DNA of 64,000 nt from an uncultured Candidatus Saccharibacteria bacterium. Its GTDB lineage: Bacteria > Patescibacteriota > Minisyncoccia > UBA6257. How positions within the stretch are numbered: the first letter of the stretch is position 1; the number at the start of each line of letters is the position of its first letter. Location of the stretch: positions 1 through 64,000 of the forward strand of contig CAYZJA010000002.1 of assembly GCA_964479005.1 (NCBI GenBank). The letters are read 5' to 3'. The notes beneath the pieces are model-generated. The model did no database searches, was not told the DNA's origin, and was given only the letters and a program-made list of their open reading frames with translations. The position numbers and the translations under genes are program-made. Of this stretch, positions 5,396 through 63,508 are shown one piece after another.

Positions 5396-7174
5396 TTATT
5401 TTTTAACTTCTTTTAAAATTATATCACAAAATTTAGTAATTGTCATGCTTCCAATATCACCTTTTTTTCTCTTTCTTACCGCAATATTCTTCTTTTTCTC
5501 TTCTTTATCTCCAACCACTAAAATATAAGGAATCTTTTGAATCTCTGCTTGCCTTATTCTTTTAGATAATGTTTCATCTCCAGCCAAAAGCTCAACCCTT
5601 AATTCTTTTTGTTGGAGCGATTGCATAGTCTTTTTGGCATAATCAGTGTTTTCATCTTTTATTGGAAGAATAACAATTTGAACTGGAGCCAACCATAAAG
5701 GAAATGCCCCGGCAAAATTTTCAATAAGTATACCCATAAATCTTTCAATGCTGCCTAAGATAGTTCTGTGCAACATAACAGGTCTTTTTTTGTCTCCATT
5801 TTTATCAATGTAAAAAAGGTTAAATTTTTCTGGCATAATAAAATCCAATTGAATCGTGCCGCATTGCCAGCTTCTACCTAAGCAATCTTTTAAATGAAAA
5901 TCAATTTTTGGCCCATAAAAAGCTCCATCCCCCTCCTTTATAATATAATCCATCTTTTTTTCTTCTAAGGCCTCCCTTAGTCCATTTGTGGCATTTTCCC
6001 ATATCTCATCAGAGCCCATTGCGTTTTCCGGCTTAGTGCTGAGTTCTACATGATAAGAAAATCCAAACTTTTTATATATGCGGTCCGTTAAATCTATCAC
6101 CTTTTTTATTTCATCCTTAATCTGCGCTGGAGTCATATATATATGAGCGTCATCCTGAGTAAAGCACCTTACTCTAAACAGACCTGCCAAAACCCCAGAT
6201 AACTCATGCCTATGGACTAATCCTAATTCCGCCACTTTTAATGGCAAATCCCTATAACTATGTAAAGAATTTTGATAAATTAAAATTCCTCCTGGGCAAT
6301 TCATTGGCTTGATAGCATAATCCTCTTCATCAATCTTTGTGAAATACATATTTTCTTTGTAATGGTCCCAATGGCCCGACTTCACCCATAATGTTTTATT
6401 CAAAAGTATTGGAGTTTTAACTTCAGTATAACCACTTTCTTGATGCTCTTTTTTCCAATAATCCTCTAAAATATTTCGCAGAATCATTCCTTTGTTATGA
6501 AAAAAAGGAAAACCAACTCCTTCGTCGTGAAAACTAAATAAATCCAGTTCTTTACCTAGTTTTCGGTGGTCTCTTTTTTCCGCTTCTTCTAATAGGTATA
6601 GGTATTCTTTTAATTCCTTCTCTTTTGAAAAAGCAATTCCAACAATCCTTTGCAACATTGGATTAGTCTCTTTGCCACGCCAATAAGCGCCGGAAACTTT
6701 ACTAAGCTTGAAACTTAAAGGAAGGTCTTTAGTATTCTTTACATGCGGTCCGCGGCATAAATCTATAAACTCGCCTACTTGATAAATTGATACTGTTTTT
6801 GGAACTTTAATTTTTTCTTTTTTATCTTTAATATTTGATATTTTATTTTGTTCTGTGGTTCCATATTTTTCTAAATCCTTCAAAAGCTCAATTTTGTAAG
6901 ATTGTCCTAATTTTTTAAAAATATCTTTTGCTTCTTTCAAAGAAACATCTTCCTTTTTAAAAGGTATTCCCTGTTTAATAATTTTTTTCATTTCTGCTTC
7001 AATTTTCGGCAAATCTTCCATAGATAAAGTTTTACCAATATCTATATCATAATAAAAACCGTTTTCTATTGTTGGCCCAACACCAAATTTAGCCTTAGAA
7101 TATAAATTCTTTACAGCTAAAGCTAATACGTGAGCCATAGAATGGCGAATAATTTCTAAAGAATCTTGTTTCAT
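5396..7174 (-). CDS. thrS: Threonyl-tRNA synthetase (no N-terminal TGS domain)
   Basis: 592 aa; HSMAHVLALAVKNLY and class II aaRS core; starts at the N2/editing-domain region. Confidence 0.95.
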   Translation of the reverse strand: MKQDSLEIIRHSMAHVLALAVKNLYSKAKFGVGPTIENGFYYDIDIGKTLSMEDLPKIEAEMKKIIKQGIPFKKEDVSLKEAKDIFKKLGQSYKIELLKDLEKYGTTEQNKISNIKDKKEKIKVPKTVSIYQVGEFIDLCRGPHVKNTKDLPLSFKLSKVSGAYWRGKETNPMLQRIVGIAFSKEKELKEYLYLLEEAEKRDHRKLGKELDLFSFHDEGVGFPFFHNKGMILRNILEDYWKKEHQESGYTEVKTPILLNKTLWVKSGHWDHYKENMYFTKIDEEDYAIKPMNCPGGILIYQNSLHSYRDLPLKVAELGLVHRHELSGVLAGLFRVRCFTQDDAHIYMTPAQIKDEIKKVIDLTDRIYKKFGFSYHVELSTKPENAMGSDEIWENATNGLREALEEKKMDYIIKEGDGAFYGPKIDFHLKDCLGRSWQCGTIQLDFIMPEKFNLFYIDKNGDKKRPVMLHRTILGSIERFMGILIENFAGAFPLWLAPVQIVILPIKDENTDYAKKTMQSLQQKELRVELLAGDETLSKRIRQAEIQKIPYILVVGDKEEKKKNIAVRKRKKGDIGSMTITKFCDIILKEVKK

Positions 7175-11116: not shown

Positions 11117-11982
11117 ATAAATTATTAGTCATACTTGGTCCTACTGCTTCAGGTAAATCTGACTTAGCTATTAAGATAGCTAAACTTTTTAATGGAGAAA
11201 TTATTTCAGCAGATTCACGCCAAATATATAAAGAAATGAATATCGGAACAGCAAAACCAATAAAAGATAATCTGCATCATTTATTAGATCTAATTAATCC
11301 TGACAAACATTTCTCTGCAGCCCAATATAAAGAATTAGCATATAAAACTATAAAAGACATACAAAATAGAAATAAGCTGCCTATTCTATGTGGCGGCACT
11401 GGTCTTTATATTTCATCAATTATTGAAAATTGGCAATTTCCAAAAATTCCCCCTCAAGAAAAACTAAGAAAAGAATTGGAAAAAAAATCGACAGAACAAC
11501 TTTTTGAAATTTACCAAAAAATAGACCCTAATGGAGCAAAATTTATTGATAAAAAAAATAAAAGGAGATTAATCCGCGCAATTGAGGTCTCTAAAGCCAA
11601 TAATAAGCCTTTTTGGCAACAAAGAAGAAAGAACAAGCCCCCTTTCAAGACTTTATTAATTGGTATAAAATTATCAAAAGAAGAATTAAAAAAAAGAATT
11701 GCAAAAAGAACCAAGAAAATGATAAAAATGGGTTTGAAAATAGAAGTAAAAATATTAATCAAAAAATACAGATGGATTCCTTCGCTCCAAACTATTGGAT
11801 ATCAAGAATGGAAACAATATTTTGATAACAAAATCAATAAAAAAGAAGTCCAAAATTTAATTGAACTCCATACTATTCAGTATAGTAAGCGACAAATGAC
11901 GTGGTTTAAAAAAATGAAAAATGTGCAATGGATTAAAAATCCAGAGCAAGCAATAAAATTAACTCAGTTGTTTCTTAAATAA
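11113..11982 (+). CDS. miaA: tRNA dimethylallyltransferase
   Basis: P-loop GPTASGKS and ISADSRQIYKEMNIGTAKP; start overlaps the rnhB stop. Confidence 0.9.
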   Translation: MNKLLVILGPTASGKSDLAIKIAKLFNGEIISADSRQIYKEMNIGTAKPIKDNLHHLLDLINPDKHFSAAQYKELAYKTIKDIQNRNKLPILCGGTGLYISSIIENWQFPKIPPQEKLRKELEKKSTEQLFEIYQKIDPNGAKFIDKKNKRRLIRAIEVSKANNKPFWQQRRKNKPPFKTLLIGIKLSKEELKKRIAKRTKKMIKMGLKIEVKILIKKYRWIPSLQTIGYQEWKQYFDNKINKKEVQNLIELHTIQYSKRQMTWFKKMKNVQWIKNPEQAIKLTQLFLK

Positions 11983-13434
11983 TACCTCTAATAATTTTGG
12001 ATCGGCTGCTCCACGTGTTTTTGCCATTGCTTGACCAATTAAAAATTGAAGCGCGTTTTCCTTGCCTTTTTTATAATCCTCAATTGTTTTGGGATTATTT
12101 TTTATTATTTCTAAAACAATTGGGACTAATTCACTTTCATTACTAATTTTTTCCAATCTCCTTTCTTTGATTAATTTCTCCGGATTCTCCCCTGTCTGAA
12201 TAATTTCTAATAAAATATCTTTTGCTACACGAGAAGAAATTTTATCTTGAACTAAATAAGAAATAATACTGGAAAAATATGCAGGAGAAATTTCTATATC
12301 ATCCCATGTAAGATTCTTTTTTTCTTTGATGCCAAAGATATCGGTAGTCAAGTAGGCACATGATATTGGAGTGCCACTTTTTTTAAGCACTGGGTCTAGT
12401 TTCGTAACAGTATCTTTAAAAAACAATAAAGCCTTATCATCTCGCAATAATAAATTTGCACTTTGGGATGGAATATTATAAGTTTGAATTAAATCTTGTT
12501 TCTTCTTCCAAGGTAACTCGGGTATTTGTTTTTTTATTTCTTCTAAATTAAATAATCCGTCTGATTTGTCTTTTGAATAAATATGTAAACGCGGTAAATC
12601 AGGTTCTGGAAAATAACGATAATCCTGAGCTTCTTCTTTTAGTCTTTGAGAATAAGTAATTTCTTTTTCTGCGTCCCATCCACGAGTTTCCTGAATTACT
12701 TTTTCTCCTTTCTCTAAAATTTTCCTTTGTCTTTGAATTTCAAAATCAATCGATTTTTCCACTGCCCGAAAAGAATTTAGGTTTTTAATTTCTACCTTTG
12801 TCCCTAACTTATCATCTTTAGCCAATGATATATTCACTTCACAACGCATCTGGCCTCTTTCCATGTCTGCCTCTGAAACGCCTAATGTTCTTAAAAGCAA
12901 TTGAAGCCCTTGAGCAAATAATCTTGCTTCTTTTCCACTGTGCATAACAGGTTCTGTTACTAATTCCATTAATGGAACACCTGCGCGATTAAAGTCAATC
13001 AAAGTTGATTCTCTATCTACAGAATGAATAAGCTTTCCTGTGTCTTCTTCCAAATGAACACGGGTAATTTTAATATTTTTTTTAGATTCTTCTAAATCAT
13101 TGCTTAAAAATAAAGATAATTCTCCCCCTTTGCATAAAGGCATATCATATTGGGATATTTGATAACCTTTTGGCAAATCAGGATAAAAATAATTTTTTCT
13201 ATCAAATTTAGAATATTCGGGAATTTCCGAATTTAAAGCCAGACCAACTGTTATAACTTGTCCTAATGCTTTTTTATTAATAACAGGAAGCGTTCCTGGA
13301 TGAGCTAAACAAATTGGACAAATATTCTTATTGGCAATCTTTTCTTCTGGATTATTCAAACAACCGCAAAACATTTTAGTCTTGGTTTTCAGTTCAGTAT
13401 GAATTTCCAGACCTATTGTTGGTTCAAATTCCAT
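11959..13434 (-). CDS. gatB: Asp/Glu-tRNA amidotransferase subunit B
   Basis: MEFEPTIGLEIHTELKTKTKMFCGC N-terminus typical of GatB; 491 aa. Confidence 0.95.
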   Translation of the reverse strand: MEFEPTIGLEIHTELKTKTKMFCGCLNNPEEKIANKNICPICLAHPGTLPVINKKALGQVITVGLALNSEIPEYSKFDRKNYFYPDLPKGYQISQYDMPLCKGGELSLFLSNDLEESKKNIKITRVHLEEDTGKLIHSVDRESTLIDFNRAGVPLMELVTEPVMHSGKEARLFAQGLQLLLRTLGVSEADMERGQMRCEVNISLAKDDKLGTKVEIKNLNSFRAVEKSIDFEIQRQRKILEKGEKVIQETRGWDAEKEITYSQRLKEEAQDYRYFPEPDLPRLHIYSKDKSDGLFNLEEIKKQIPELPWKKKQDLIQTYNIPSQSANLLLRDDKALLFFKDTVTKLDPVLKKSGTPISCAYLTTDIFGIKEKKNLTWDDIEISPAYFSSIISYLVQDKISSRVAKDILLEIIQTGENPEKLIKERRLEKISNESELVPIVLEIIKNNPKTIEDYKKGKENALQFLIGQAMAKTRGAADPKLLEVLFKKQLS

Positions 13435-13597: not shown

Positions 13598-14023
13598 CTA
13601 TTTTTCTATTTCTATACCCATACTCCTTGCTGTTCCTTCCACCATCTTCATAGCCGCTTCTATATCTGTTGTATTTAAATCAGGTAGTTTCCTTTTAGCA
13701 ATTTCTTCTACTTGTTTTTTTGTAATCTTTCCAACTTTTTGTTTTAAAGGATTGCCAGCTCCTTTTTGTATTCCCGCCGCTTTGCGTAATAAATCAGATG
13801 CTGGAGGTTGTTTAAATTTTAAATCAAAACTCCTGTCTTGATAAATTGTAATTTCTACGGGAATAATATCTCCAGCTTGATTCTTTGTCTTTTCATTGAA
13901 TCGCGTGCAAAATTCCTGAATATTTAAACCGTGCTGACCTAAAGCAGGACCAACAGGTGGAGCAGGATTAGCCTGCCCAGCAGGAATTTGTAAAATTAAA
14001 GTTGTTTTTATTACTTTTCCCAT
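13598..14023 (-). CDS. rplK: Ribosomal protein L11
   Basis: [22 protein letters not shown] signature. Confidence 0.95.
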
Positions 14024-14038
14024 ATTTAATTAAAACTT

Positions 14039-14584
14039 TTAATCTTTTTTGACTTGAAGAAAATCTAAATCTACTGGAGTATCCCTTCCAAATAGGGATA
14101 CTAATACCTTAACTCTTCCCCTTTCATGGTCTATTTCATCAACTTTCCCTTGTTTGTCTTTAAAAGGCCCATCAATAATAGTAACTAAATCTCCTTCTGT
14201 AAAATCTATTTTATATTTTGGTTCTTCCTCTCCCGTCTTTTTTAAAATATTCTTTATCTCGTCGTCTTGGACAGGCCGGGGAGTTGTTCCTGCTCCAATA
14301 AAACCTGTCACCATTGGGGTATTCCTTACAACATACCATGAATCATCAGTAACAATCATTTCAACAAAAACATAGCCTGGATATATTTTTTCTTCAACAA
14401 CAGCGCGCTTGCTGTGTTTTATCTTTATTTTTTTTTCTTTTGGCACTAAAACATTAAAAATCTTATCCTGCATCTGTAAAGATTCAACTCTTTGTTTTAA
14501 ACTTCGAGCTACCGCATCTTCATATCCAGAATAAGTATGAATTACATACCAATTTCTTCCTAAATTTATCTGCTGTTTTGGCAT
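14039..14584 (-). CDS. nusG: Transcription termination/antitermination factor NusG
   Basis: NGN domain (WYVIHTYSGYE) plus C-terminal KOW. Confidence 0.9.
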   Translation of the reverse strand: MPKQQINLGRNWYVIHTYSGYEDAVARSLKQRVESLQMQDKIFNVLVPKEKKIKIKHSKRAVVEEKIYPGYVFVEMIVTDDSWYVVRNTPMVTGFIGAGTTPRPVQDDEIKNILKKTGEEEPKYKIDFTEGDLVTIIDGPFKDKQGKVDEIDHERGRVKVLVSLFGRDTPVDLDFLQVKKD

Positions 14585-20972: not shown

Positions 20973-21881
20973 TTAAACTTTAAGATATTTATTCATTGCC
21001 CAGAAACTGGATACTATTCCTAGGAATATGCCAAATAGTGTTTGGTATAGGAGAATATACCAGAAATGCGACCAGAAATACAAACTCATGCTTATTTCAG
21101 CAATAAAAGATTCTACTCTAGGGCTACCCCACATAACAAGAGGAATTAAGATTAAAATCGCAACAAAAGAGGCGATTATACCCTGAAGCGCTCCTTCTAA
21201 GAGAAACGGGCCACGAATAAACCAATTAGAAGCACCAACTAATTTCATTATTTCAATTTCGCCTTTTAGAGAATAAATTGCCATGCGAATCGTGTTAAAA
21301 CTAATAAGAAGACTCAAAAACGCCGCAATAAGAATAACTAAAATGGAACCTAATTTTATTCCTACTGATAAAGCGTTAATCCTCTCAATCACTCTCTGGT
21401 TTTCCATTAAATCTACTGTGATTAATTTATCTTTAAAAACTGAATTGTCAATTTCATCAATAATTTCTGTATAATATTTTGTATCTTTGGCTTTGATATT
21501 TAGAGAAGCGGCTAAAGGATTTTCCCCTAATTCTTCCAATGCTCTTCTAATAGCCGGGTTTCTGCTGCTTTTTTCTTCAAAAATTTTTAATGCTTCATCC
21601 TGGGATATATATTCAATTTTAGCAATTTTTTCATTGCCTATAAGATCATCGCGGATTCTTAAAATATCTTCTTCTGGAACATCTCTTTTAAAATAAATGC
21701 TAATATCCATCTTTTCTTTCAAAATATTGATAAGGTTATTGCTAGCATTATTAAATATTAAAATCGAACTTAAAATAATCAAACTTATAGTCAGCATTGT
21801 TATACAAGTAAAAGAAAGCCAATTATTTCTAACCAACCCTTGCCAAGCTGTGCGAAAAACTCTTTTTATTACAACAAACAT
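20973..21881 (-). CDS. ftsX: Cell division permease FtsX
   Basis: N-terminal TM, periplasmic domain, three C-terminal TM helices; adjacent to ftsE. Confidence 0.85.
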   Translation of the reverse strand: MFVVIKRVFRTAWQGLVRNNWLSFTCITMLTISLIILSSILIFNNASNNLINILKEKMDISIYFKRDVPEEDILRIRDDLIGNEKIAKIEYISQDEALKIFEEKSSRNPAIRRALEELGENPLAASLNIKAKDTKYYTEIIDEIDNSVFKDKLITVDLMENQRVIERINALSVGIKLGSILVILIAAFLSLLISFNTIRMAIYSLKGEIEIMKLVGASNWFIRGPFLLEGALQGIIASFVAILILIPLVMWGSPRVESFIAEISMSLYFWSHFWYILLYQTLFGIFLGIVSSFWAMNKYLKV

Positions 21882-21893
21882 GTGATTAAATTG

Positions 21894-22577
21894 TTAAATT
21901 AAATATTTTCCTTCTTCTTCATCGCGAATAATCTTCCCTTTATCCAAACTAATAACTCTTTGTCCTAAAGTATTTATTACCTCTTTGTCATGAGTAGCTA
22001 AAATTATAGCTGTGCCAAGTTCATTGATCTTCATTAAAAGCTTTATAATCTCCCATGTATTAATTGGGTCTAAATCCCCTGTAGGCTCATCAGCTAATAT
22101 TATCTCTGGTCTTTGAGCCAAAACGCGGCATATAACCACCCTTTGTTTTTCTCCAGCAGAAAGTTGATGTGGAAAATTATTCGCTTTTCCCTCTAGACTT
22201 ACTAGTTTTAATAATTCAGGAGCGTCTTTTTTTATTGCTTGCTCAGAATAACCAGCCACTTCCATGGCAAAAGCCACATTTTCATAAGCTGTCCTATTGG
22301 CTAATAATCTGAAATCCTGAAATACCATCCCAATCTTGCGTCTAAGAAGAGTTACTTCCCCGGGTTTAAATTTATTAATATCCTTATCGTCAAAAAAAAT
22401 CCTTCCTTTGGTTGGAGGCTCTTCTTTTATCAACATTTTTAAAATTGTCGTTTTTCCTACTCCTGACCTTCCTACTAAAGAAACAAATTCTCCTGATTTT
22501 ACTTCAAAAGTAACATTATCCAAAATTAGAGAACCGTTATAAGCCTTGGAAACATTTTTAAAATAAACTAATGGCAT
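21894..22577 (-). CDS. ftsE: Cell division ATP-binding protein FtsE
   Basis: Walker A GRSGVGKTT and ABC signature LSAGEKQR. Confidence 0.9.
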   Translation of the reverse strand: MPLVYFKNVSKAYNGSLILDNVTFEVKSGEFVSLVGRSGVGKTTILKMLIKEEPPTKGRIFFDDKDINKFKPGEVTLLRRKIGMVFQDFRLLANRTAYENVAFAMEVAGYSEQAIKKDAPELLKLVSLEGKANNFPHQLSAGEKQRVVICRVLAQRPEIILADEPTGDLDPINTWEIIKLLMKINELGTAIILATHDKEVINTLGQRVISLDKGKIIRDEEEGKYLI

Positions 22578-22579
22578 AA

Positions 22580-23332
22580 CTAAGAATTTAAAATTTTATC
22601 TAAATTTCCATCTAATACTTCATCAACATTGCCTATCTTTTTACCAGTACGATGGTTTTTTACTAATTTATATGGATGAAGGACATAGGAACGGATCTGA
22701 TTACCCCATTCAATTTTTATTTTTTCGCCCTTTAATTCTTTCAAAGTTTTTACTTTCTGTTTCTCGGCTAATTGATGAAGTTTAGCCCTTAAAACAGTCA
22801 GAGCTTTTTCTTTATTCTTAAACTGCGATCTTCCCTCCTGACAGCCAACAACTATCCCAGTAGGCTTATGGCGTACCCTTACGGCTGTTTCCACTTTTTG
22901 AACATTTTGCCCGCCTGGACCTGAAGAACGAAAAGTTTCAATTTCTAAATCACTTTCTTCTAATGGAAGTTCTTTCGCCTCAATAATCGGCAAAACCTCC
23001 ACCAAAGCAAAAGATGTGTGGCGAAGTTTAGCAGAAGAAAAAGGAGAAATTCTTACTAAACGATGCACACCATTCTCATTTTTTAAAATTCTATAAACAT
23101 CATCTCCATTTATCTCTACAACAGCATTCTTAATGCCGCCATATTCATTTTCTCTCTTGTCTAATAATGAAAATCTCCAATTTTTTCTCTCTGAATATTT
23201 CTGATACATCTTTAAAAGCATCAATGCCCAATCTTCGGCATCTTGACCACCAGCGCCAGCATATACAGAAAGTGTTATATTATTTCCTCTAGGCATCTTG
23301 AGAATTTTACCAAATTTAGGCCTAAAAAACAA
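22580..23332 (-). CDS. prfB: Peptide chain release factor 2 lacking N-terminal domain 1
   Basis: SPF (RISPFSS) and GGQ (SGPGGQNVQKVETAVR) motifs; aligns to RF2 domains 2-4 from AGAGGQDAEDW onward. Track start is a TTG; likely ATG at 23296. Only 23 nt separate it from the pcm stop. Confidence 0.85.
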   Translation of the reverse strand: MFFRPKFGKILKMPRGNNITLSVYAGAGGQDAEDWALMLLKMYQKYSERKNWRFSLLDKRENEYGGIKNAVVEINGDDVYRILKNENGVHRLVRISPFSSAKLRHTSFALVEVLPIIEAKELPLEESDLEIETFRSSGPGGQNVQKVETAVRVRHKPTGIVVGCQEGRSQFKNKEKALTVLRAKLHQLAEKQKVKTLKELKGEKIKIEWGNQIRSYVLHPYKLVKNHRTGKKIGNVDEVLDGNLDKILNS

Positions 23333-23355: not shown

Positions 23356-23994
23356 TTATTCTTTATCAGTAATCAAAGGAACAAAGGTAAATCCTTGAAA
23401 ACGCTTTACATCAAATTCATTTTCCGCTTTTTTTATCCAAAGTTGTACTTCTCCATCAAGAGGAGTAACTATTCTTCCACCTGTTTTTAATTGTTTTCGC
23501 CATGCTTGAGGAATTTCTTCTACTGTAGCTGAACAAAGAATTTTGTCAAAAGAAGCTTTTTTTTCATAACCTTTAGAGCCGTCAGCACAAATAAATTCTA
23601 CTACGCCTTTTTCTATAAAACTGTATTTTGCTACGTTGCTTTCTCCAAATTCTTTTAATTTAGGTATCCTTTCTATAGCAATCACTTTTCCTTCAGGATT
23701 TTGACTTACAATGTGAGCTAAAAGAGCAGTTGTCCATCCAGAGCCAGAACCGATATCCAAAATCTTTTCTCCTGCTTGCGGTTGAAGAAGCTCTAATATA
23801 AAAGCCACTGTAAGAGGCTGAGAAATTGTTTGCCCAAAACCAATAGGTAGAGGAATATTTGAATAAGTTTCGTCCCGATACTCTGAAACTACAAAATTCT
23901 TTCTATCAATAGCTAAAAACGCCTCTATAATATGAGAGGATTTTAAATAACCTGAATTAATAATTCCCTGAATAAGATTTTCTTTATCTGACAT
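23356..23994 (-). CDS. pcm: Protein-L-isoaspartate O-methyltransferase
   Basis: SAM-binding ILDIGSGSGW and TISQP motif. Confidence 0.9.
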   Translation of the reverse strand: MSDKENLIQGIINSGYLKSSHIIEAFLAIDRKNFVVSEYRDETYSNIPLPIGFGQTISQPLTVAFILELLQPQAGEKILDIGSGSGWTTALLAHIVSQNPEGKVIAIERIPKLKEFGESNVAKYSFIEKGVVEFICADGSKGYEKKASFDKILCSATVEEIPQAWRKQLKTGGRIVTPLDGEVQLWIKKAENEFDVKRFQGFTFVPLITDKE

Positions 23995-24104: not shown

Positions 24105-24656
24105 CTATGATGACGAAGAAAGGCGACCTAAAAATCTATACCATCGTATTGGGAGATAGAAAACAATTGCTTCCCTAATTCGATAAAGTGTTTTCCAAAA
24201 ATCAGGAGACACTATAATAGTATTATATTCTACATTAAATTTATGTTTATCTTTTTGAAACATAATCGAAAAATCCCTCTTAATGCGACGTATATTTATA
24301 TCTGAGCTAACCACTACAATATTTTTAATCTTTGGATTAGCCTTCAAATATATCTGAATTTCCTCCCAATACCTAAAAACCATCTCGCTTACTGTTATCA
24401 AATGATTTTTTTCTGAAATTAAAGGCCATGTTCTAACCAAAGCATTTGGAGAACAAATTAGCAAATCACCAATATTCATATTTTCTCTCATTTCAAACCA
24501 AAATTTATGATTAGGAACCAGCAGGCCCTTTTGGTTATAAGGAAATACCACATGTATTGTATCGGCTTTAGCATCAATCACCTTCCTTAAATTTCTTTCA
24601 AAGATTTTGTCATAACAAACAGGATTACATTTCTTATACCCTCCATCCCATTTCAT
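24105..24656 (-). CDS. Hypothetical protein (possibly DUF218/YdcF-like)
   Basis: IVVVSSDINIRRI weakly resembles the DUF218 motif; otherwise unassigned. Confidence 0.35.
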   Translation of the reverse strand: MKWDGGYKKCNPVCYDKIFERNLRKVIDAKADTIHVVFPYNQKGLLVPNHKFWFEMRENMNIGDLLICSPNALVRTWPLISEKNHLITVSEMVFRYWEEIQIYLKANPKIKNIVVVSSDINIRRIKRDFSIMFQKDKHKFNVEYNTIIVSPDFWKTLYRIREAIVFYLPIRWYRFLGRLSSSS

Positions 24657-24785: not shown

Positions 24786-25178
24786 TTACATTGGGAGCAA
24801 TCCTGTGCATCTCCAATTTATTTCTGCTGTTTTTGTTTCTACATTAATTACACAAGCGGGATTACAACCTTCTTTCTCAATATCCAAATCTATCCACCAA
24901 GTTCCAGTAATTTCATTGCATATATAAGTATCTTTAAGTTTATCACTACATTGGCCCTGAATAGCAATCTCTTTAGCTTCTGATAAACTGAGTTTTATAT
25001 CAGTTCCTTTTTTCTGACAAAATTCTTCAGAAGAAATTGTTGTCGTAGTTAATCCAATCGTCGTTGTAGTAACAGAAGGAATATTTATTGTTATAATTCC
25101 TTTTCTCATTAAATAACCACCAATAACCAATAATGCTAATATTATAAAGAAGATTGAAGCTGATCCTTTTTTATTCAT
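24786..25178 (-). CDS. Small secreted Cys-rich protein with Thr-run linker
   Basis: N-terminal TM/signal, TTTTIGLTTTT linker, 6 Cys. Confidence 0.45.
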   Translation of the reverse strand: MNKKGSASIFFIILALLVIGGYLMRKGIITINIPSVTTTTIGLTTTTISSEEFCQKKGTDIKLSLSEAKEIAIQGQCSDKLKDTYICNEITGTWWIDLDIEKEGCNPACVINVETKTAEINWRCTGLLPM

Positions 25179-28035: not shown

Positions 28036-28320
28036 ATGAAAAAAGACATCCATCCAAAATACAATACTAAAGCAACTGTGAACTGCGCTTGCGGGGCTAA
28101 ATTTAATGTTGGCTCTACTATTGATAAAATGGAAATTGAAATTTGCTCACGCTGTCATCCTTTTTATACCGGGCAAAAAAAATTGGTAGACACTGCTGGT
28201 CGTGTCCAAAAATTTAAAAATCGACTTGAAAAAACAAAAGGTATCAAAAGTAAAAAACCTATCCTGAGTAAAATTGAGAAAAGAAAGAAAAAAACAAATA
28301 GAAAGGCAAAAACCCGCTAA
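28036..28320 (+). CDS. rpmE: Ribosomal protein L31 with Lys-rich C-terminal extension
   Basis: CACG...[10 protein letters not shown] zinc-ribbon motif. Confidence 0.9.
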
Positions 28321-28339: not shown

Positions 28340-29386
28340 ATGAAATTAGAAAAATTAGAAAAAGAAAAAGAAAATCTTTTTAAGAAACTCGGTAATCCTG
28401 AGTTTCTTTCAAATAAAAAGAATTTTGAAGAAGCTTCCCGTAAATTGAAAAAGATTGAAAGTGAGATAAATTTTCTTAAAATACTCGCAAAAACAGAGAA
28501 AAAGATAAAAGAAGCTGAAGAAATTTTAGTTGAGGCAACTGATGATGAACTTTTGTCTTTGGCAGAAGAAGATTTAAAAAAGAATAAACAATTAAAAGAA
28601 AAAATTTTAGCAGAAAAGGCGAAAAAATTGGAAGAAAACAATGATACATCTGAAATTAAAGGCATCATGGTGGAGATTAGGGCTGGAACTGGAGGAGAAG
28701 AAGCGGCATTATTCGCTCATGACTTATTCAGAATGTATAATCGATATGCTGAAAACAAAGGATGGCCAATTAAAATTATTAATATGAATAAAACGGCATT
28801 AGATGGTTTAAAAGAAGGAGTAATGGAAATAAATAATAAAGAAGCTTTTGAAAACCTAAAATACGAAGCTGGTGTGCATCGAGTTCAAAGAATACCATTT
28901 ACTGAAAAATCTGGACGTATTCACACTTCTACAGCAACGGTAGCTATTCTTCCTCAAGTAAAAAATGTAAAGATAGAAATCAAGGCAGAGGATTTAGAAG
29001 AAACATTTTTCCGTTCTTCAGGTCCAGGCGGACAAAACGTCCAAAAAGTAGAAACAGCAGTGCGTATTGTGCACAAACCTACAGGCATAGTAGTTACCTG
29101 CCAAAGCGAAAGACAGCAAAAACAAAACAGAGAAAAAGCTTTAGAATTCCTAAAAAATAAAGTTTTTAATAAAAAGCAAGGAGAAGCGATAGGAAAAACA
29201 GAAAAAGAAAGACGCGACCAAATAGGTCGCGCCGAGAGATCAGAAAAAATTCGTACTTATAATTTTCCACAGGATCGTATCACTGATCATCGTATTAAAA
29301 AATCCTGGCATAATATTGAACAAGTCCTCAATGGGAATTTAGATGAAATAATTAGAGATATTAAAAAGGAATATCATCAGGAATAA
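28340..29386 (+). CDS. prfA: Peptide chain release factor 1 (full length, domain 1 present)
   Basis: PxT-type motif (RIPFTE) and GGQ; 348 aa. Confidence 0.95.
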   Translation: MKLEKLEKEKENLFKKLGNPEFLSNKKNFEEASRKLKKIESEINFLKILAKTEKKIKEAEEILVEATDDELLSLAEEDLKKNKQLKEKILAEKAKKLEENNDTSEIKGIMVEIRAGTGGEEAALFAHDLFRMYNRYAENKGWPIKIINMNKTALDGLKEGVMEINNKEAFENLKYEAGVHRVQRIPFTEKSGRIHTSTATVAILPQVKNVKIEIKAEDLEETFFRSSGPGGQNVQKVETAVRIVHKPTGIVVTCQSERQQKQNREKALEFLKNKVFNKKQGEAIGKTEKERRDQIGRAERSEKIRTYNFPQDRITDHRIKKSWHNIEQVLNGNLDEIIRDIKKEYHQE

Positions 29387-43651: not shown

Positions 43652-46600
43652 TTATGGAATAGTAGTTGTGGTTACCTCTGGAACAATTGGCGGAATATTT
43701 ATAAAAATTATTTTAGGAATTTCTGATTTTAACCCTTCACTGTCTTGAGCTTTGATACCAAAAAACACATCAAGGGAAACACCAGGTAATCTTTTCTTTT
43801 CTATATAACGTAAATCATCGATAGATACTTGAAGTCGAAGTTTATTTTCTTGAGCATTCAAAGTTGGTTCCCCTAAAACATTTTGAGATTGAGAGTATCT
43901 CCATGATTGTCGTGTTAAATCGTTGTTCTCTGAACCATCTCCTTGTTTGGCAAAAACATAATGAATATCATATTTTAAAATATCTTTTGGATCTTCATCC
44001 GAAGCTGGCGTCCAAGAAAAAATTAAATTATTACAATCTTCATTATCGCATTCCACTTCAAAATTTTTGACATTAGTTGGTTGATGATAATAATTTGAGG
44101 AATAAAAATAAAATTTAGTATCATCATAAGCAATTAATTTCAAATAAGACCGAATATTTTTAGCATATCCATAATAACCAATTGTTATATATTGATCAGG
44201 AGTAAAATTTAAACCTTGACCATGAGTAGTCCCTATAACATCAACAACAAAATGATTATCGCTAGATAATTTGTCTATTCTATAGGATAGTTTTCTCGGA
44301 ACAGCAGAGCCAGCTGCCATTTTTTCATCAGCAGTGAAAATTATACTTCCTACTTTTTGAGTATCACCAACATAATTAGGATAAGATAATAATAATCCAG
44401 GAGTATTGCTATATAATTCCCAGTCATTTTTACCACCTAAATAACCTGTTGGAATGCCAAAATTTGCTGAAGGATCATCAAAATCTGAGTGGAGATAGAA
44501 CACCATCGCCGTAAAAATATTGCTCGTATGATTTGTTGAAGGAATAAAAGGATAAGAATTAATTCTAAAATCAATTACTATTTTGGGAGAATCTTTCTCA
44601 AAAGGATGCCAAGAAAATTCAGTAATATAAGGTATTGTCGGCGCTGCAGGAGTAGTGGTTGTTGGGATGAAACAATCATTAGAAGAAAAACTTTTGGGAC
44701 TGGGACAATTTTGAATTTCAAAATCATCGGCATTATTATCAGAGTCCAAAAAATTACCATCTATATACTTTCTTTGAATGCTTTGACTTGGTTCAGGATT
44801 TATCGCGCAATTAACCTCACAATCATTTGCTTCTCCATAACCAATTTTATCTACTATTTCTCTATTGGGATTCTTTAGAATAATAGTATTATTATTAGTA
44901 AGACTATAATTAGAGACTAAAACATCGGCTATCTCTGTATAAGTACTTGAAGAATGAGTAATCAATAAATATCCAAAGGAACTAATAACTTTTTCTGCTA
45001 ACAAATGAGCTGGTACTAAAGAAGAAAATTCTTGACTATTTTGGGTTTTCTTTTGAATATACCAATCAGTTAAATCTACATCATTATCATTGGGATTATA
45101 AAGTTCTATAAATTCATCTTTTGTAAGAGTTTTTGCCTCAGAGTCCAACCCAGCAATTTTTATCTCATTAATTAGAATTTTAGGAAAAACAATGGGGGGT
45201 AATGTTGTTGTTGTAGTAGTAGTAGTTGTTGTTGTAGTAGTAGTTTGCGAAGATGGAGTTGAACCCCCTCCGCCGCCTGAAGAAATAATCACAGGTTGAC
45301 TATTCTCCCTTTTGGGTGTGCCCAAAATACCATTTTGTTCTACACCACCATAGGTATGCCATGATAAATTATTGCCTCTTTCCATTGTCCGTTTTTGAGA
45401 ATTATTTCCTGCTGACCAATCCAAATCAGCTAAAACTTCATCTTGAAGCTGACAATTACTATCAAATAAACGAAGTCCTTCATCAGCATTATTAAGGACC
45501 CCTGCATAAATATGATCTGCAATCACAAAAGGAATAGAACTATCATCTGTTCTTTCCAAAAGATAAAAACCATGAGCAGCTATTTTACTGCCTTGCTCAA
45601 AAACAATTTTAATTTGTTCTTTTTTATCTATTAGCTGCCAATTAGAAATATCTATTTCATGTGAAGAAATATTTTTTAATTCTATCCACTCGTCATTGGC
45701 ACTATTTTGGGTTCCCATCCAAGCTAGTTCACTAATAATTATTTTATTTCTTAATGTGGCTTGGGTAGTATTAAAAGAACAAAAATTGGGGCTAAGAGTA
45801 GTTGTTGTGGTTAGTTTAGTTGTTGTAGTAGTTGGTTTGGTAGTGGTGACAGTGAGTTTGGTAGTTGTTGTAAATAACTTAGTAGTAGTCGTGGTTTGTT
45901 TAGTAATGGTTGGTGATTTGGTAGTAGAAGGTTGATATTTTATTGTGGTGGTTGTGGTAATTTGGGAAAGAGTAGTCGGAGAAAAAGATAAGCTGGTGTC
46001 TGAAGCATCTGGGGGACTATGTGGAATTTCTGTTTCTTCAATCAAAACATATTCGGGATTTCTTTGAAAAATATCATTAATAAAATCAGAAAGACCACTT
46101 ATCATAGCTGTCAACACATTTTTTTCATTCTTTGATATAAAATCAGGCTTAGATTTTGCCCTTGCAACTTCTTGAAAAAATAAATCAATAACTCCAGCAC
46201 CAGTTAAAACTACCCTTTTAGAAAGCCTTTCCCAGTACTCCTGAAGAACTTGATCATCTTCTAATGAAAAAATCGTGGGGCCGGAAGTTAATCGCCATCC
46301 TATATTATTTTTTAAAATAAGCGCTAAATGAAAAATATTATGGTTTTCGTCTTCTCCTAGTACATAGAAAATTAATTTTCCATTTATTAACTCAGGTACT
46401 TCAGAAAAAACAGGCTGCGGCAATTTATATTTTGAACCCGAAATCGTATCGGGACTATAAAAGTAATTATTAGAATAAAGAGCAATTTCATCAAAATATT
46501 CGTCAAGGTTAACCCTTCTAACAGGTTTCAGATTTTCGATACTCTTTCGTGTTTGTTCGTAAAAATCTTTATTATTTTTAGCTGTATAGGATTCATAAGG

Positions 46601-47164
46601 ACTGCCTGTATTTGGTATAAAAAATATATGGACATTCTGTCTTGTATGCTCTGGCACACTCATATCCTGAATCAAATGTAAAATATGGCCGAGGGCCTTA
46701 AAGGCTTCAACTCGATTTCCTTTTACATACTTATAAATAGCCTGTTGCCAAGTAAAATTAGTCTTGGAAAAAACTGGACTTTTAGCTATTGGACCAATAA
46801 GAACTGAATAAATAGGATCGTAGACAGCTTGAGCAAAAGGGTTCTGCCCCCACTCTTTAGCAGTTAAAACCGGAAAAAGATGTTCTACTCCCCCAAACTG
46901 CCAAGTTTTATTAAAAACTGGATCATAAAAATGATTTACGCTTCTAACACCATCATCCTCATCAATGCTGCCTTGCATTAAAAGTTGTTTTTCTGTTTCA
47001 TTCAAGGCATGATTTAAAAAGTGTTGATTATAAAAGTCAACAGTAATTTCTGTTAAATTTGGATGTGTAGTTTTAGCATCGTAAGCAAGAACAGAAAAAT
47101 TAGGTAAAAAGAATAAACATACAAATAAACATACAAATAAAAAACTGGTGGGGCTTTTTCTCAT
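43652..47164 (-). CDS. Large secreted protein: zinc-dependent phospholipase C / P1-nuclease superfamily domain, Thr-rich linkers, two lamin-tail domains (LTD)
   Basis: Signal peptide. N-terminal domain with ..THPNL.., SVNHFYDP and LGHILHLIQDMSVPEH, which parallel the HFYDPD and LGLSLHYLGDVNQPMH motifs of zinc phospholipase C. TTTTTK and T14 runs. LTD-like blocks ISELAWMGT..DEWIELKN...ISNWQL and INEIKIAG...DEFIELYNPNDNDVDLTDWYI. Confidence 0.7.
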   Translation of the reverse strand: MRKSPTSFLFVCLFVCLFFLPNFSVLAYDAKTTHPNLTEITVDFYNQHFLNHALNETEKQLLMQGSIDEDDGVRSVNHFYDPVFNKTWQFGGVEHLFPVLTAKEWGQNPFAQAVYDPIYSVLIGPIAKSPVFSKTNFTWQQAIYKYVKGNRVEAFKALGHILHLIQDMSVPEHTRQNVHIFFIPNTGSPYESYTAKNNKDFYEQTRKSIENLKPVRRVNLDEYFDEIALYSNNYFYSPDTISGSKYKLPQPVFSEVPELINGKLIFYVLGEDENHNIFHLALILKNNIGWRLTSGPTIFSLEDDQVLQEYWERLSKRVVLTGAGVIDLFFQEVARAKSKPDFISKNEKNVLTAMISGLSDFINDIFQRNPEYVLIEETEIPHSPPDASDTSLSFSPTTLSQITTTTTIKYQPSTTKSPTITKQTTTTTKLFTTTTKLTVTTTKPTTTTTKLTTTTTLSPNFCSFNTTQATLRNKIIISELAWMGTQNSANDEWIELKNISSHEIDISNWQLIDKKEQIKIVFEQGSKIAAHGFYLLERTDDSSIPFVIADHIYAGVLNNADEGLRLFDSNCQLQDEVLADLDWSAGNNSQKRTMERGNNLSWHTYGGVEQNGILGTPKRENSQPVIISSGGGGGSTPSSQTTTTTTTTTTTTTTLPPIVFPKILINEIKIAGLDSEAKTLTKDEFIELYNPNDNDVDLTDWYIQKKTQNSQEFSSLVPAHLLAEKVISSFGYLLITHSSSTYTEIADVLVSNYSLTNNNTIILKNPNREIVDKIGYGEANDCEVNCAINPEPSQSIQRKYIDGNFLDSDNNADDFEIQNCPSPKSFSSNDCFIPTTTTPAAPTIPYITEFSWHPFEKDSPKIVIDFRINSYPFIPSTNHTSNIFTAMVFYLHSDFDDPSANFGIPTGYLGGKNDWELYSNTPGLLLSYPNYVGDTQKVGSIIFTADEKMAAGSAVPRKLSYRIDKLSSDNHFVVDVIGTTHGQGLNFTPDQYITIGYYGYAKNIRSYLKLIAYDDTKFYFYSSNYYHQPTNVKNFEVECDNEDCNNLIFSWTPASDEDPKDILKYDIHYVFAKQGDGSENNDLTRQSWRYSQSQNVLGEPTLNAQENKLRLQVSIDDLRYIEKKRLPGVSLDVFFGIKAQDSEGLKSEIPKIIFINIPPIVPEVTTTTIP

Positions 47165-58938: not shown

Positions 58939-59235
58939 TCATCCAATTTTATAAAAAATTTTATTAATTTTCACTTTGGGAATTCTCTTTTTAAGATAAG
59001 CTCTTAATTGCGGTTCCTCTAATCGTAATTCTGATGAAATAACTGCCCTACAACACTTAATTGTTAATATCCCCTGTTTTAAAGAACTGACCCTGACTAT
59101 ATCCAAGGACCAGTTTTTTCTTTTTTTAAAATATTGGTTGATTACGTTAATTGCTTCCTGCCCCTGAAAAAAACTTTTAAATCTTTTGGTGTTTGACCAA
59201 CTGTTTAGTGCTTGTTTGATTGATATAAAAGCCAT
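58939..59235 (-). CDS. DUF721/DciA-like small protein downstream of dnaN
   Basis: GILTIKCCRAVISSELRLEEPQLRAYL...VKINKIFYKIG fits the DUF721 pattern (G.L.V.V.SsawA.eL....l...L...IRFrvG); position matches conserved synteny. Confidence 0.45.
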   Translation of the reverse strand: MAFISIKQALNSWSNTKRFKSFFQGQEAINVINQYFKKRKNWSLDIVRVSSLKQGILTIKCCRAVISSELRLEEPQLRAYLKKRIPKVKINKIFYKIG

Positions 59236-59250
59236 AAGACAAAATACTAT

Positions 59251-59310
59251 GTCAAATTTTAATTGGCATTAAAATATAGCGTCAAATTTTAATTGGCATT
59301 AAAATATAGG
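59251..59310. repeat. Tandem 30-bp direct duplication (29/30 identical) spanning the dnaN stop
   Basis: GTCAAATTTTAATTGGCATTAAAATATAG[C/G] twice; the second copy encodes the dnaN C-terminus ..MPIKI*. Confidence 0.8.
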
Positions 59311-60418
59311 AAAAGCTATCATCAGATTTCCCATGAATCAAGCCGGGATTAATTTCTTTATTTAATTTAATAATAATTTCATCTTCTTTAATTGAATGCA
59401 ATCCATCTAATAAGAAATGATAATTAAAACTAATCTTTAATGGATTTCCACTTATATCTTCGGGGGTAAGAACTGTATGGCTTTTCCCCAAAGAAGGGTC
59501 TTGAGCCTCAATAACAATTTCCTTTTTCGATGAATTAAAATCAAACATAACGTCATTTATCCTCCCGCTAAATAAGCCAATAATTTTAACGGCCTCAATT
59601 AATTTCTTTCTATTTAAAATTGTCTGATTTTCAAAATTAGACGGAATTATTGAAGAATATTTTGGGTATTCAGCATTAATAAGCCTGGATATTAAGCGAA
59701 CATTATTTAATGAAAACTGAATTTGATTAGGTTCTGGAAAAATCTTTACTACACTACTAACTTCCTCCATCTCTTCTTGAATAATTCTTAGAACTTCTTG
59801 CGCTGTTCTTAATGGAATTATTATTTCTAAATTATCTTTTATATTAGTTTTAATTTTTTGGGATAAAATATTCTTTTCTGCCAAACGGAAACTATCAGTG
59901 CCAACTAATTTTAAAACGCTTTTTGAAGTATCGTTTTCTAATTTGAATAAAATACCATTCAATTCTGGTTTTGGAGAAGTATAACCAACACTCGGAATTA
60001 CTTGTTCTAATGCTTCTTCAAGGTCCTTTTTTTCTATTTCTATATATCTTTCTGTTTTTGTTTCTGGAATAATTGGAAATTCATCGGGATTTATTCCTTG
60101 AAAGGTCGTATTATAATTCCCACTTTTTACTGATAGAATATTTTTACTTTCTTCAATTGTAATTTTTTCTTCTGATAAATTATTCAAAAACATAGAAAAA
60201 GTTTTTGCTGGAATGATAAATTTTCCTTCTTTTTCCACTTTTCCTGTGATGATTAATTCAATTCCAATTTCCAAATCAGTGGCCAAAAGATGGAGCTTAT
60301 TTTTATTTGTTTTTAAAAGGATATTACTCAAAATAGGGAGTGTAAGATTTTTCCCTGTAATTTTTTCTGCTAAATTAATAGATTTTTTAAAATTATCGAC
60401 TAAAGTGATAAATTTCAT
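59282..60418 (-). CDS. dnaN: DNA polymerase III beta sliding clamp
   Basis: Three-domain clamp, 378 aa, immediately downstream of dnaA. Confidence 0.9.
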   Translation of the reverse strand: MKFITLVDNFKKSINLAEKITGKNLTLPILSNILLKTNKNKLHLLATDLEIGIELIITGKVEKEGKFIIPAKTFSMFLNNLSEEKITIEESKNILSVKSGNYNTTFQGINPDEFPIIPETKTERYIEIEKKDLEEALEQVIPSVGYTSPKPELNGILFKLENDTSKSVLKLVGTDSFRLAEKNILSQKIKTNIKDNLEIIIPLRTAQEVLRIIQEEMEEVSSVVKIFPEPNQIQFSLNNVRLISRLINAEYPKYSSIIPSNFENQTILNRKKLIEAVKIIGLFSGRINDVMFDFNSSKKEIVIEAQDPSLGKSHTVLTPEDISGNPLKISFNYHFLLDGLHSIKEDEIIIKLNKEINPGLIHGKSDDSFSYILMPIKI

Positions 60419-60672
60419 ATTTTTATACTAATTATTATTTATATATTATATATATTAATATGTTATTATAATTAAGGACGGATATTTTGTGCATAAATGA
60501 TTTTTTAAAGGTAGTATTGGTTATTAATGATTCTTTAAATGGATAACTAGTGAATAATTAATGAATAATTTGGAGAAAACATGGGGATAGTAATTTAATT
60601 TTCGATTTTTAATTTTCAATTCTCAATTTTATCAAGTGTTTACACCTTATTTTATCAACAATATATCCACCA
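60419..60672. other. oriC part 1: AT-rich unwinding region plus DnaA-box-like sites between dnaA and dnaN
   Basis: AT-only stretch 60421..60475; boxes TGTGcATAA, TTATCaACA, aTATCCACc, tGGATAA. Confidence 0.55.
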
Positions 60673-62055
60673 TCATTTATTATACAACATTTCTTTCAAA
60701 ATTGTTATTTCCTGACAAAAAACAGGGTTTTTTTCAATTTCAGAAGATATCTTTTTATATGCATGAATAACGGTGGTATGGTCACGATTACCTAATTTTT
60801 CAGCAATACTGGTATAGGAATAATGCAACTCTTCGCGCAAAAGATACATTACTATTTGCCTTGGTTTTACTAATTCTTTCTTCCTAGAACGACCCAAAAC
60901 ATCGTCTTCTTTAAGGTCATAGAAAGAAACTATTTTTTTAATCACTTCTTTTGGTGAAATATATTTATTTGATTTATTTAAAATGAGTGACAATATTCTT
61001 TTGGTTTCTTCTAAAGAGATTGGACTATTTTTAAGGCGCGCATGCGCGATGACTCTGTTTAATGCTCCCTCTAATTCCCTGATATTCTTTGGGATTGCCT
61101 CAGCTATATACTTAAGAACATCATTGTTTATAAGATGGGATACATCCTGACTTTTGTTTTCTAAAATAGCTAATCTTGTTTCAAAATCAGGATAACCAAT
61201 ATCAGCTATCATACCCCCTTCAAATCTAGACCTTAACCGTTCCTCAATAGACGGAATAGATTTTGGCGGGCGATCAGAGGTAAAAACAATTTGTTTATCT
61301 TTTTCATAGAGCGTATTAAACGTATGGAAAAGTTCTTCTTGTGTTTTATCTTTTCCGGCGACAAACTGGACATCGTCAATTAAAAGAAGATCAAGATTTC
61401 GGAAACTTTTTTTAAACTCTGTCATTTTTTGATTACGGATAGCATTAACTAAATCATCTGTAAATTTTTCCGAGGTAGCGTATAAAATTTTCAATTTCTT
61501 TTTTTTTCTCTTTAGTTCATTACCAATAGCTTGTAGAAGATGTGTTTTTCCTAATCCAACGCCGCCATAGATAAAAAGAGGATTATATTTTTTTCCTAGA
61601 TTTTCTATTACTGCCAAAGATGCTGCATTAGCTAATTCATTATTGGTTCCGACAACAAAGTTTTCAAAAAGGTATTTTGGATTAAGATTAGTTTCAGGGT
61701 CAATATTAAATTCTAATTGTTCATCTAAAACTGACGATTTTGAAATAGTTGAAGAACGTTTTGTTTTTTTAGTCTCTATTTTTTTTAAAGAATCTTTATT
61801 AGTAGTAACCAGATATTCAATCTTTTTAATTTTAGGATTTAAGCTAAAAAGAGCGTGTAGAATTTGTTTATGGTATTTATTTTCAAGCCATTCTTTTGTA
61901 AAACTAGATGGGACACCTATAAAGACCGTTCCTTCTTTAATATCTAAAATAAAAGCATCTTTTAACCATGTTAGGTAATTAGCTTTAGAAATATTCAATT
62001 TAATCTCTCCCAAAGCTGCTTCCCAAAGTTCTTTGATATCCATAATTGAAATCAC
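60673..62055 (-). CDS. dnaA: Chromosomal replication initiator DnaA
   Basis: AAA+ Walker A GGVGLGKTHLL and C-terminal DnaA-box-binding HTH. Confidence 0.95.
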   Translation of the reverse strand: MISIMDIKELWEAALGEIKLNISKANYLTWLKDAFILDIKEGTVFIGVPSSFTKEWLENKYHKQILHALFSLNPKIKKIEYLVTTNKDSLKKIETKKTKRSSTISKSSVLDEQLEFNIDPETNLNPKYLFENFVVGTNNELANAASLAVIENLGKKYNPLFIYGGVGLGKTHLLQAIGNELKRKKKKLKILYATSEKFTDDLVNAIRNQKMTEFKKSFRNLDLLLIDDVQFVAGKDKTQEELFHTFNTLYEKDKQIVFTSDRPPKSIPSIEERLRSRFEGGMIADIGYPDFETRLAILENKSQDVSHLINNDVLKYIAEAIPKNIRELEGALNRVIAHARLKNSPISLEETKRILSLILNKSNKYISPKEVIKKIVSFYDLKEDDVLGRSRKKELVKPRQIVMYLLREELHYSYTSIAEKLGNRDHTTVIHAYKKISSEIEKNPVFCQEITILKEMLYNK

Positions 62056-62261
62056 AATATTTACATTCTATAGTATAACAACCTTTCGTTTTACTCAAGA
62101 ACGTTGAAATTGAAATGTACGCATTTCCATTATAAAAATAAAATTTAGTTTCTGCAAGAAAATCATTCTCTTTTGGGGATAAACTGTTGATAATCAGTGG
62201 GTTTGATATTTAACGTATATTTTGGTATGCTGTTCTAGATTTAAATTTAATATTTATTGCT
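62056..62261. other. oriC part 2 / dnaA-rpmH divergent promoter region with DnaA boxes
   Basis: TGgGGATAA and TGTtGATAA boxes (8/9 each) at about 62175..62194. Confidence 0.5.
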
Positions 62262-62396
62262 ATGTCGATTACTTATCAGCCAAAAAAGAAAAAGAGATCA
62301 CGCGCCCATGGATTTTTAAAAAGAATGTCTTCTAAGGGAGGAAAAAAAGTTATTAGTCAACGGAGGCAAAAAGGAAGAAAAAAATTAACTCCTTAA
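62262..62396 (+). CDS. rpmH: Ribosomal protein L34
   Basis: Own translation [44 protein letters not shown] (44 aa); below the ORF-track cutoff. Confidence 0.85.
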
Positions 62397-62399
62397 GTA

Positions 62400-62735: not shown

Positions 62736-62741
62736 ATTATT

Positions 62742-63434: not shown

Positions 63435-63460
63435 TTTTGAGCAAAGCCACGTTTAACGTG

Positions 63461-63508
63461 GCAAAGTGAGAAACAAGGTTCTGTGAACAAAGTAAACAGG
63501 TTCTTATT
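63461..63508 (+). repeat. AGGTTCT direct-repeat element copy ending at the jag ATG
   Basis: GCAAAGTGAGAAACAAGGTTCTGTGAACAAAGTAAACAGGTTCTTATT, preceded by the palindrome GCCACGTTTAACGTGGC. Confidence 0.7.

Follow-up and report, generated by a model that had tools for sequence, protein, structure and literature searches.

The window analysed here, a stretch of 64,000 nucleotides (positions 1 to 64,000 of contig CAYZJA010000002.1, from an uncultured Candidatus Saccharibacteria bacterium), harbours a gene for a class I release factor of unusually short length. This open reading frame (ORF) is probably the ordinary prfB of the organism, encoding a genuine, streamlined RF2 without domain 1. Its assignment as a genuine RF2 is based on the best score by sequence as well as by fold, the retention of the functional motifs, purifying selection, its position in a prfB-ftsE-ftsX gene block and the use of UGA as a stop codon. 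A preceding sequence-only reading of the window had likewise favoured a truncated but genuine RF2, and the family scores, invariant motifs, substitution rates, synteny and UGA stops all speak for that view. The gene and its two signature motifs are located as follows.

22580..23296, reverse strand: prfB without domain 1 (238-residue RF2, domains 2-4), from the ORF list, TIGR00020, the PDB, an AlphaFold model and the ratio of nonsynonymous to synonymous substitution rates (dN/dS).
23039..23047, reverse strand: SPF tripeptide 'anticodon' S84-P85-F86, the RF2-specific stop codon reader, from sequence and alignment.
22907..22915, reverse strand: GGQ catalytic motif G128-G129-Q130, from sequence; invariant in the alignment.

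Comparison with family profiles gave NCBIfam TIGR00020 (prfB) as the top family, with a score of 338.1 bits over positions 116-349 of the 353 in the profile, versus 237.8 bits for the prfA profile and 106.6 bits for PrfH (TIGR03072, cutoff 166.65). The Pfam domain PCRF (PF03462) was matched only at positions 100-194 of 194, its last half, and the RF-1 domain (PF00472) is complete (E 3.8e-37, profile positions 5-116 of 116). A search of the PDB returned RF2 chains at 200-233 bits, RF1 chains at 146-188 and PrfH at 55-71, the protein being 42-47% identical to solved RF2s. Its AlphaFold model has a pLDDT of 82 and TMq values of 0.80-0.86 to ribosome-bound RF2. In the PDB search residue 9 aligned with residue 130 of Escherichia coli RF2, and residue 5 with residue 125 of Bacillus subtilis RF2. 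The short RF2 has 5 residues ahead of the first strand (beta1) of domain 2 and lacks ~120 N-terminal residues, equivalent to ~1-121 of E. coli RF2, i.e. the whole of domain 1. Alignment with full-length relatives showed that the C-terminal 'FIEAxLK' helix (~8-15 residues) is gone as well. The motifs AGAGGQDAEDW, RISPFSS and GGQ are all present, and the early claim that only domains 2-4 are encoded is borne out by these matches. In an alignment of 27 short and full-length RF2s, G16, G17, S84, R92, H93, T94, S95 and the GGQ motif are invariant; P85 and F86 are conserved in at least 90%, and W197 is invariant or nearly so across short and long forms.

These scores also bear on the suggestion, made in the sequence-only reading, that the protein might be a PrfH-like rescue factor. 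The ORF would then be an extra, specialised paralogue, PrfH-like or otherwise dedicated to rescue or quality control, next to a full-length prfB located outside the window. PrfH indeed lacks domain 1 and combines a codon-recognition-like domain with GGQ, as the short RF2 does (PMC1586002, PMC6514570), it is weakly matched, and the search covered 64 kb of a genome of ~0.55 Mb. However, the PrfH score lies far below its cutoff and below the RF2 score, and among PDB chains the best PrfH reached 71 bits versus 233 for RF2. PrfH is an RtcB-linked rescue factor for damaged ribosomes whose gene lies directly downstream of a gene for an rtcB-family RNA ligase, whereas the short RF2 gene has pcm upstream, and no rtcB was found among those window ORFs of at least 90 residues that were compared with Pfam or took their annotation from L001, a coverage that misses a few short ORFs. 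In PMC1586002 the decoding residues of PrfH are described as altered, with a changed tripeptide and helix tip (e.g. G138 to P) and an Arg after the 'anticodon', while the short RF2 has the canonical GG tip and SPF followed by Ser. By phylogeny and by position it belongs with prfB, in the ancestral prfB-ftsE-ftsX slot, and a genome of this size would be unlikely to keep two RF2 genes. Some Patescibacteria genomes do pair one short with one long class I factor, yet every such pair consists of an RF1-type and an RF2-type protein. A paralogue is therefore regarded as improbable, and an identity as PrfH was rejected on the basis of the subthreshold score, the lack of a visible rtcB in the window and the canonical decoding motifs. 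An ArfB-like identity was rejected too. The GGQ-only rescue factors ArfB, ICT1 and mtRF-R share the GGQ domain with the short RF2, but they have a basic C-terminal tail and no codon-recognition domain, whereas the short RF2 keeps decoding domains 2 and 4; the ArfB profile matched residues 120-155 only (50.8 bits, cutoff 100).

The mechanical ORF call (22580..23332, reverse strand) comprises 250 residues counted from a TTG, and its stop codon is the TAG at 22580..22582 (reverse strand). The sequence-only reading had adopted this TTG and a gap of 23 nucleotides to pcm. The start is probably the ATG at 23296 instead, 36 nucleotides further downstream, which yields the 238-residue product. This ATG is favoured because in the L008 orthologue (93% identity) an in-frame TGA interrupts the stretch from the TTG to the ATG, because the product from the ATG is identical to database protein P0001, and because the conservation of the 36 nucleotides is that of DNA and not of codons. 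The distance from the end of pcm at 23356 to the start codon then becomes 59 nucleotides. With either start the claim that domain 1 does not fit remains valid, since with pcm ending 59 nucleotides before the ATG there is no room for ~120 codons of domain 1 or for a frameshift window. Upstream of the ATG no ORF0 and no CTTTGA motif were found on inspection of the window sequence, in line with the earlier statement that the frameshift site is missing.

23297..23332, reverse strand: 36 nucleotides added to the ORF by the TTG start, probably non-coding, from the L008 in-frame TGA and DNA invariance.
23356..23994, reverse strand: pcm (protein-L-isoaspartate O-methyltransferase), the upstream neighbour (PF01135, E 8.5e-57).

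An artefact or a decaying pseudogene, i.e. a remnant truncated at its 5' end or a mistake of assembly or gene calling, could be suspected from the first ORF call, which began at a TTG without an obvious ribosome-binding site, and from the frequency with which the frameshift causes mis-annotation of prfB. This reading is effectively refuted by the conservation data. The identical 238-residue protein, flanked by the same genes, is found on 8 independent contigs that stem from several samples. Over 80 database clusters at 90% identity hold proteins of 234-258 residues, with identities from 100% down to ~59%; the named clusters are labelled Paceibacteria, Parcubacteria or Minisyncoccia 'PCRF domain-containing protein'. 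Among GTDB species representatives the short form occurs in all 19 complete loci (64-97% identity; L007-L026 without L020, whose locus stops at the contig end), so that the survey of prfB length proposed along with the sequence-only reading returned an equal short length for these loci. In most of these 19 loci another ORF ends 18-137 nucleotides upstream. The dN/dS values against L007-L009 are 0.05-0.08 at dS 0.28-0.64, which points to strong purifying selection on the short RF2, and the catalytic and decoding residues are intact. An erosion of the 5' end would also be at odds with the upstream region, where no frame with domain-1 similarity was detected. The size of the clade is not derivable from the search of representatives at 50% identity, which lumps it with a 348-residue full-length representative; ~10 of the 150 representatives (50%-identity clusters) start within 20 residues of the core. 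Some of the 50%-identity representatives (P0181, P0182, P0189, P0191 and P0250) have an RF2 core from residue 2-18 that is followed by a long C-terminal extension, to a total length of 313-524 residues; they may be fusions, or their genes may have been miscalled.

Downstream of prfB lie ftsE and ftsX, and the 2-nucleotide spacing between prfB and ftsE suggests that these two form one operon.

21894..22577, reverse strand: ftsE, in a possible operon with prfB (ABC_tran; start 2 nucleotides after the prfB stop).
20973..21881, reverse strand: ftsX, third gene of the prfB-ftsE-ftsX block (FtsX_ECD and FtsX; synteny).

Of the 19 short-clade loci, 17 retain the order prfB-ftsE-ftsX, the exceptions being L015, where the contig stops after ftsE, and L012, a locus of 2.4 kb with neither gene. 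The order is also found in the separately truncated L039 and in the full-length L027, while the short contig of L028 carries ftsE only. Among full-length relatives, L027 and L028 stand closest (60-62% identity). Both have a 22-codon ORF0 ending in ADRL, followed by CTT-TGA-A or CTT-TGA-C, after which domain 1 continues in the +1 frame.

L027:1023-1029: RF2 frameshift site, CTT TGA A.
L028:322-328: RF2 frameshift site, CTT TGA C.

The +1 frameshift (CUU UGA C), by which RF2 is autoregulated, occurs widely among bacteria but not in all of them. In a neighbour-joining tree calculated from the core, the short clade is monophyletic and sister to L027/L028, within RF2 and apart from RF1. L027 and L028 already show the short-clade signatures 'SPFSAAKL' and 'GGQNVQK'. 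The simplest history suggested by these comparisons is a 5' deletion in an ancestral prfB that took ORF0, the frameshift site and domain 1 together.

Domain 1 might still be made as a separate small protein, encoded elsewhere and joining the core in trans. Such a split gene is conceivable in view of the description of domain 1 as a flexible, loosely attached helical module (PMC1586002) and of the large part of the genome that lies beyond the searched window. It is nevertheless considered very improbable. In the six frames of the window, tblastn and hmmsearch --max with a profile of domain 1, derived from 6 full-length Patescibacteria RF2s, gave nothing beyond chance matches and a weak similarity of the N-terminus of RF1. 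A weak 'SPDFWK' match in the 183-residue ORF 24105..24656 was judged to be due to chance. The profile was equally empty, in any frame, in the DNA flanking the 19 main-clade loci and 4 other truncated RF2 loci (at most 6 kb, and shorter where the contig is short). A search of 5.8 billion proteins with a domain-1 alignment returned 5 hits, all of them RF2 fragments at contig ends, although this search was weak and carries little weight, as its word index evidently fails on a K/E-rich coiled coil. Furthermore, the upstream neighbour of prfB varies among relatives, pcm being present in the closest ones only, which argues against a conserved partner that could stand in for domain 1.

An RF2 activity is needed by this organism because UGA terminates ORFs and the sole tRNA-Trp in the window carries the anticodon CCA. 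Under the standard code 90% of the window is coding, and the stops of 61 long ORFs are TAA (43), TGA (10) and TAG (8). ATGA overlaps account for several of the TGA stops, and each TGA stop falls at a protein end consistent with Pfam coverage. Recoding of UGA was rejected on the basis of the long ORFs under table 11, the TGA codons at natural protein ends and the tRNA-Trp anticodon. Elsewhere among the collected loci, the RF1 genes of L075, L081, L082 and L083 (~5650-6750, forward strand) are interrupted in frame by 1-4 TGA codons but by no other stop codon, which fits UGA-recoded lineages with a code 25-like translation table; domain 1 is kept in these RF1s. The RF1 gene of the window itself had been described as retaining domain 1, and this is correct: its product covers PCRF from position 2 and scores above the NF001859 cutoff of 400.

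28340..29386, forward strand: prfA (RF1), full length including domain 1 (PCRF profile 2-194 of 194; NF001859 405.6 bits).
28036..28320, forward strand: rpmE (L31), preceding prfA (annotation via L001).

The core of the short RF2 is more basic than that of canonical RF2. In the core regions of the release factor loci L007-L086 and the window, the net charge is +8.8 for the main short RF2 clade, +10.8 for four other short RF2s and +9.0 for short RF1s, versus full-length values of +1.8 (Patescibacteria RF2) and -1.1; the sister full-length proteins of L027/L028 have +3. Once locus GC is taken into account as a covariate, truncation is associated with ~+8 in core charge. A compensation of the truncation by charge is suggestive from these sequence comparisons.

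The region directly 5' of the prfB ATG holds a 33-nucleotide block, TTGTTTTTTAGGCCTAAATTTGGTAAAATT, which is invariant in the window, L007, L008 and L009, and unchanged in L009 despite a different upstream gene. An extended -10-like element, TGGTAAAAT, lies inside this block and ends 7 nucleotides before the ATG. No Shine-Dalgarno sequence is present in the block, and a consensus promoter scan did not call it. Based on the DNA conservation and the match of TGGTAAAAT, the block may be a promoter for a leaderless prfB mRNA.

Several points weigh against the assignment as the ordinary, sole RF2. The TIGR00020 score is lower than the curated cutoff of 370, which is explained by the one third of the profile left unmatched with domain 1 gone. 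That a bacterium would manage with an RF2 without domain 1 as its only one is a non-trivial expectation. The window represents 64 kb of a ~550-kb genome, to which the searches added flanks of 6-10 kb from ~25 related loci, and a second, full-length prfB or a domain-1 gene could lie elsewhere. Regarding charge, the full-length RF1 of the window has an equally basic core (+9), and the trend is confounded by phylogeny, as the samples are phylogenetically dependent.

As the ordinary RF2 of the organism, the protein would function as follows. Along with domain 1, the lineage (Paceibacteria/Parcubacteria) would have lost the short helix at the C-terminus and programmed +1 frameshifting. The domain 2/4 superdomain remains, with its elements for reading the stop codon (the GG-x-D tip of helix alpha5, SPF and RHTS), and so does domain 3 with GGQ, the motif that extends to the peptidyl-transferase centre in RF2. 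The short RF2 would thus bind the A site, read UGA/UAA and hydrolyse peptidyl-tRNA as canonical RF2 does. It would have no domain-1 contact to the uL11/bL12 stalk, no domain-1-dependent stimulation of RF3 and no RF3-dependent recycling. Binding would probably be slower and exit from the ribosome spontaneous, which may be bearable for a bacterium that grows slowly and has a ~0.55-Mb genome, and the more basic domain 2-4 core may partly make up for the lost stalk contact. Expression would rest on the short upstream element of the gene itself, with no RF2-sensing frameshifting. An RF3-type translational GTPase was not found in the 64-kb window when its ORFs were compared with Pfam, and literature searches found nothing linking prfC or RF3 to Patescibacteria.

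Biochemical precedents for such a factor come from E. coli. In that organism the C-terminal domain of bL12 bridges domain I of RF1 to uL11, and removal of bL12 makes RF1 binding 150-fold slower (PMC6076264). According to PMC1586002, citing Mora et al. 2003, codon-specific release in vitro survives the deletion of domain 1 from E. coli RF1 and RF2, truncated RF1 is functional in vivo, and domain 1 is required for stimulating nucleotide exchange on RF3. These engineered proteins (Mora, Zavialov, Ehrenberg & Buckingham 2003, Mol Microbiol 50:1467) have the same domains 2-4 architecture and are the nearest functional precedent for the short RF2. They are laboratory deletions with a fitness cost, slow growth according to a reviewer in PMC1586002, whereas the natural deletion is fixed, old and clade-wide and is accompanied by sequence changes. 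With canonical RF2 (TIGR00020; E. coli 1GQE, B. subtilis 9FY1, Thermus thermophilus 4V67) the window protein has the domain 2/4 superdomain, domain 3 and the SPF, RHTS, GGQ and GG tip motifs in common, and its gene neighbourhood is that of full-length prfB in sister lineages. It differs in lacking domain 1, the FIEAxLK helix and the frameshift site and in its more basic core.

Loss of domain 1 is not confined to the main clade. Four more short RF2 genes (L029, L031, L035 and L039) are interleaved with full-length genes in the tree, and the C-terminal helix is still present in three of these four. Six short RF1s from Parcubacteria and WWE3 carry the P-x-T motif in the form RVQRIPKTEK and have only 3-23 residues before domain 2; nothing was found with an RF1 domain-1 profile upstream of their genes. 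One further RF1 has lost only part of domain 1.

L076:2083-2862, forward strand: short RF1 gene.
L077:353-1111, forward strand: short RF1 gene.
L078:5974-6720, forward strand: short RF1 gene.
L079:2140-2853, forward strand: short RF1 gene.
L084:5920-6723, forward strand: short RF1 gene.
L085:3702-4427, forward strand: short RF1 gene.
L080:5785-6708: RF1 gene with an internal deletion of ~50 residues in domain 1.

Both RF1 and RF2 could be seen in five genomes besides that of the window. Those of L017, L025 and the 21H_023.bin.67 assembly combine a short RF2 with a full RF1, as in the window; in a WWE3 assembly it is the RF1 (L077) that is short, while the RF2 (L050) is full length and of the frameshift type, and one genome has a short RF2 and the partly eroded RF1. 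The number of independent domain-1 losses is at least three in RF2 and at least three in RF1, counts that are approximate as they come from a distance tree of ~230 positions. Loss of domain 1, as judged from these alignments, is recurrent in the phylum and hits either factor. It may be, although we hold this with somewhat less than even confidence, that the loss is a recurrent adaptive trait of Patescibacteria, usually affecting one factor per genome, with a convergent gain of ~8 positive charges in the core.

Some other features of the window were recorded. The genes nusG (14039..14584) and rplK for uL11 (13598..14023) are directly followed by gatB (11959..13434; all on the reverse strand), and rplA-rplJ-rplL (L1, L10 and L7/L12) were found neither after rplK nor elsewhere in the 64-kb window. 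Some Parcubacteria reportedly lack L1. The missing rplA-rplJ-rplL near rplK may matter, since uL11 and bL12 are the ribosomal contacts of release factor domain 1. Upstream of pcm, two ORFs on the reverse strand, 24105-24656 (183 residues) and 24786-25178 (130 residues), had no Pfam match; relatives retain the 183-residue ORF ahead of pcm or prfB, at 77% identity in L008 and 51% in L010. A protein of 1170 residues encoded at 43652-47164 (reverse strand) has two Lamin Tail Domain (LTD) stretches as its only Pfam match and is probably a large surface protein. The region 58939-63982, with dnaA (60673..62055), dnaN (59282..60418) and a DciA-like gene on the reverse strand and rnpA, yidC and a KH/R3H (Jag-like) gene on the forward strand, looks like a replication origin neighbourhood.

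To our knowledge, essentially all RF1 and RF2 proteins of bacteria retain domain 1. Full-text literature searches returned no description of a naturally truncated RF1 or RF2 in the Candidate Phyla Radiation (CPR)/Patescibacteria, and no such truncated factors are described in the release factor survey of Burroughs & Aravind 2019 or in a 2024 PNAS perspective. The short RF2 is moderately interesting alone, and more so within the recurrent loss of domain 1 across Patescibacteria. As the short RF2s score below the TIGR00020 cutoff and are entered in GenBank as 'PCRF domain-containing protein', marker gene sets and completeness estimates built on TIGR00020 may miscount them. Being short and compact, the protein might also find use as a minimal RF2 scaffold, either in genetic code engineering or in in vitro translation. 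Provided that the short RF2 is the only UGA reader, a large natural clade without domain 1 amounts to an evolutionary experiment, which bears on the purpose of domain 1, on termination on the reduced ribosomes of the CPR and on the control of RF2 levels without frameshift autoregulation. If the recurrent loss is indeed adaptive, termination in these bacteria would proceed without recruitment of domain 1 by the bL12/uL11 stalk, and probably without RF3, relying on electrostatic affinity for rRNA instead, and the short RF2 would represent a naturally evolved minimal termination factor near the tRNA-shaped ancestral release factor.

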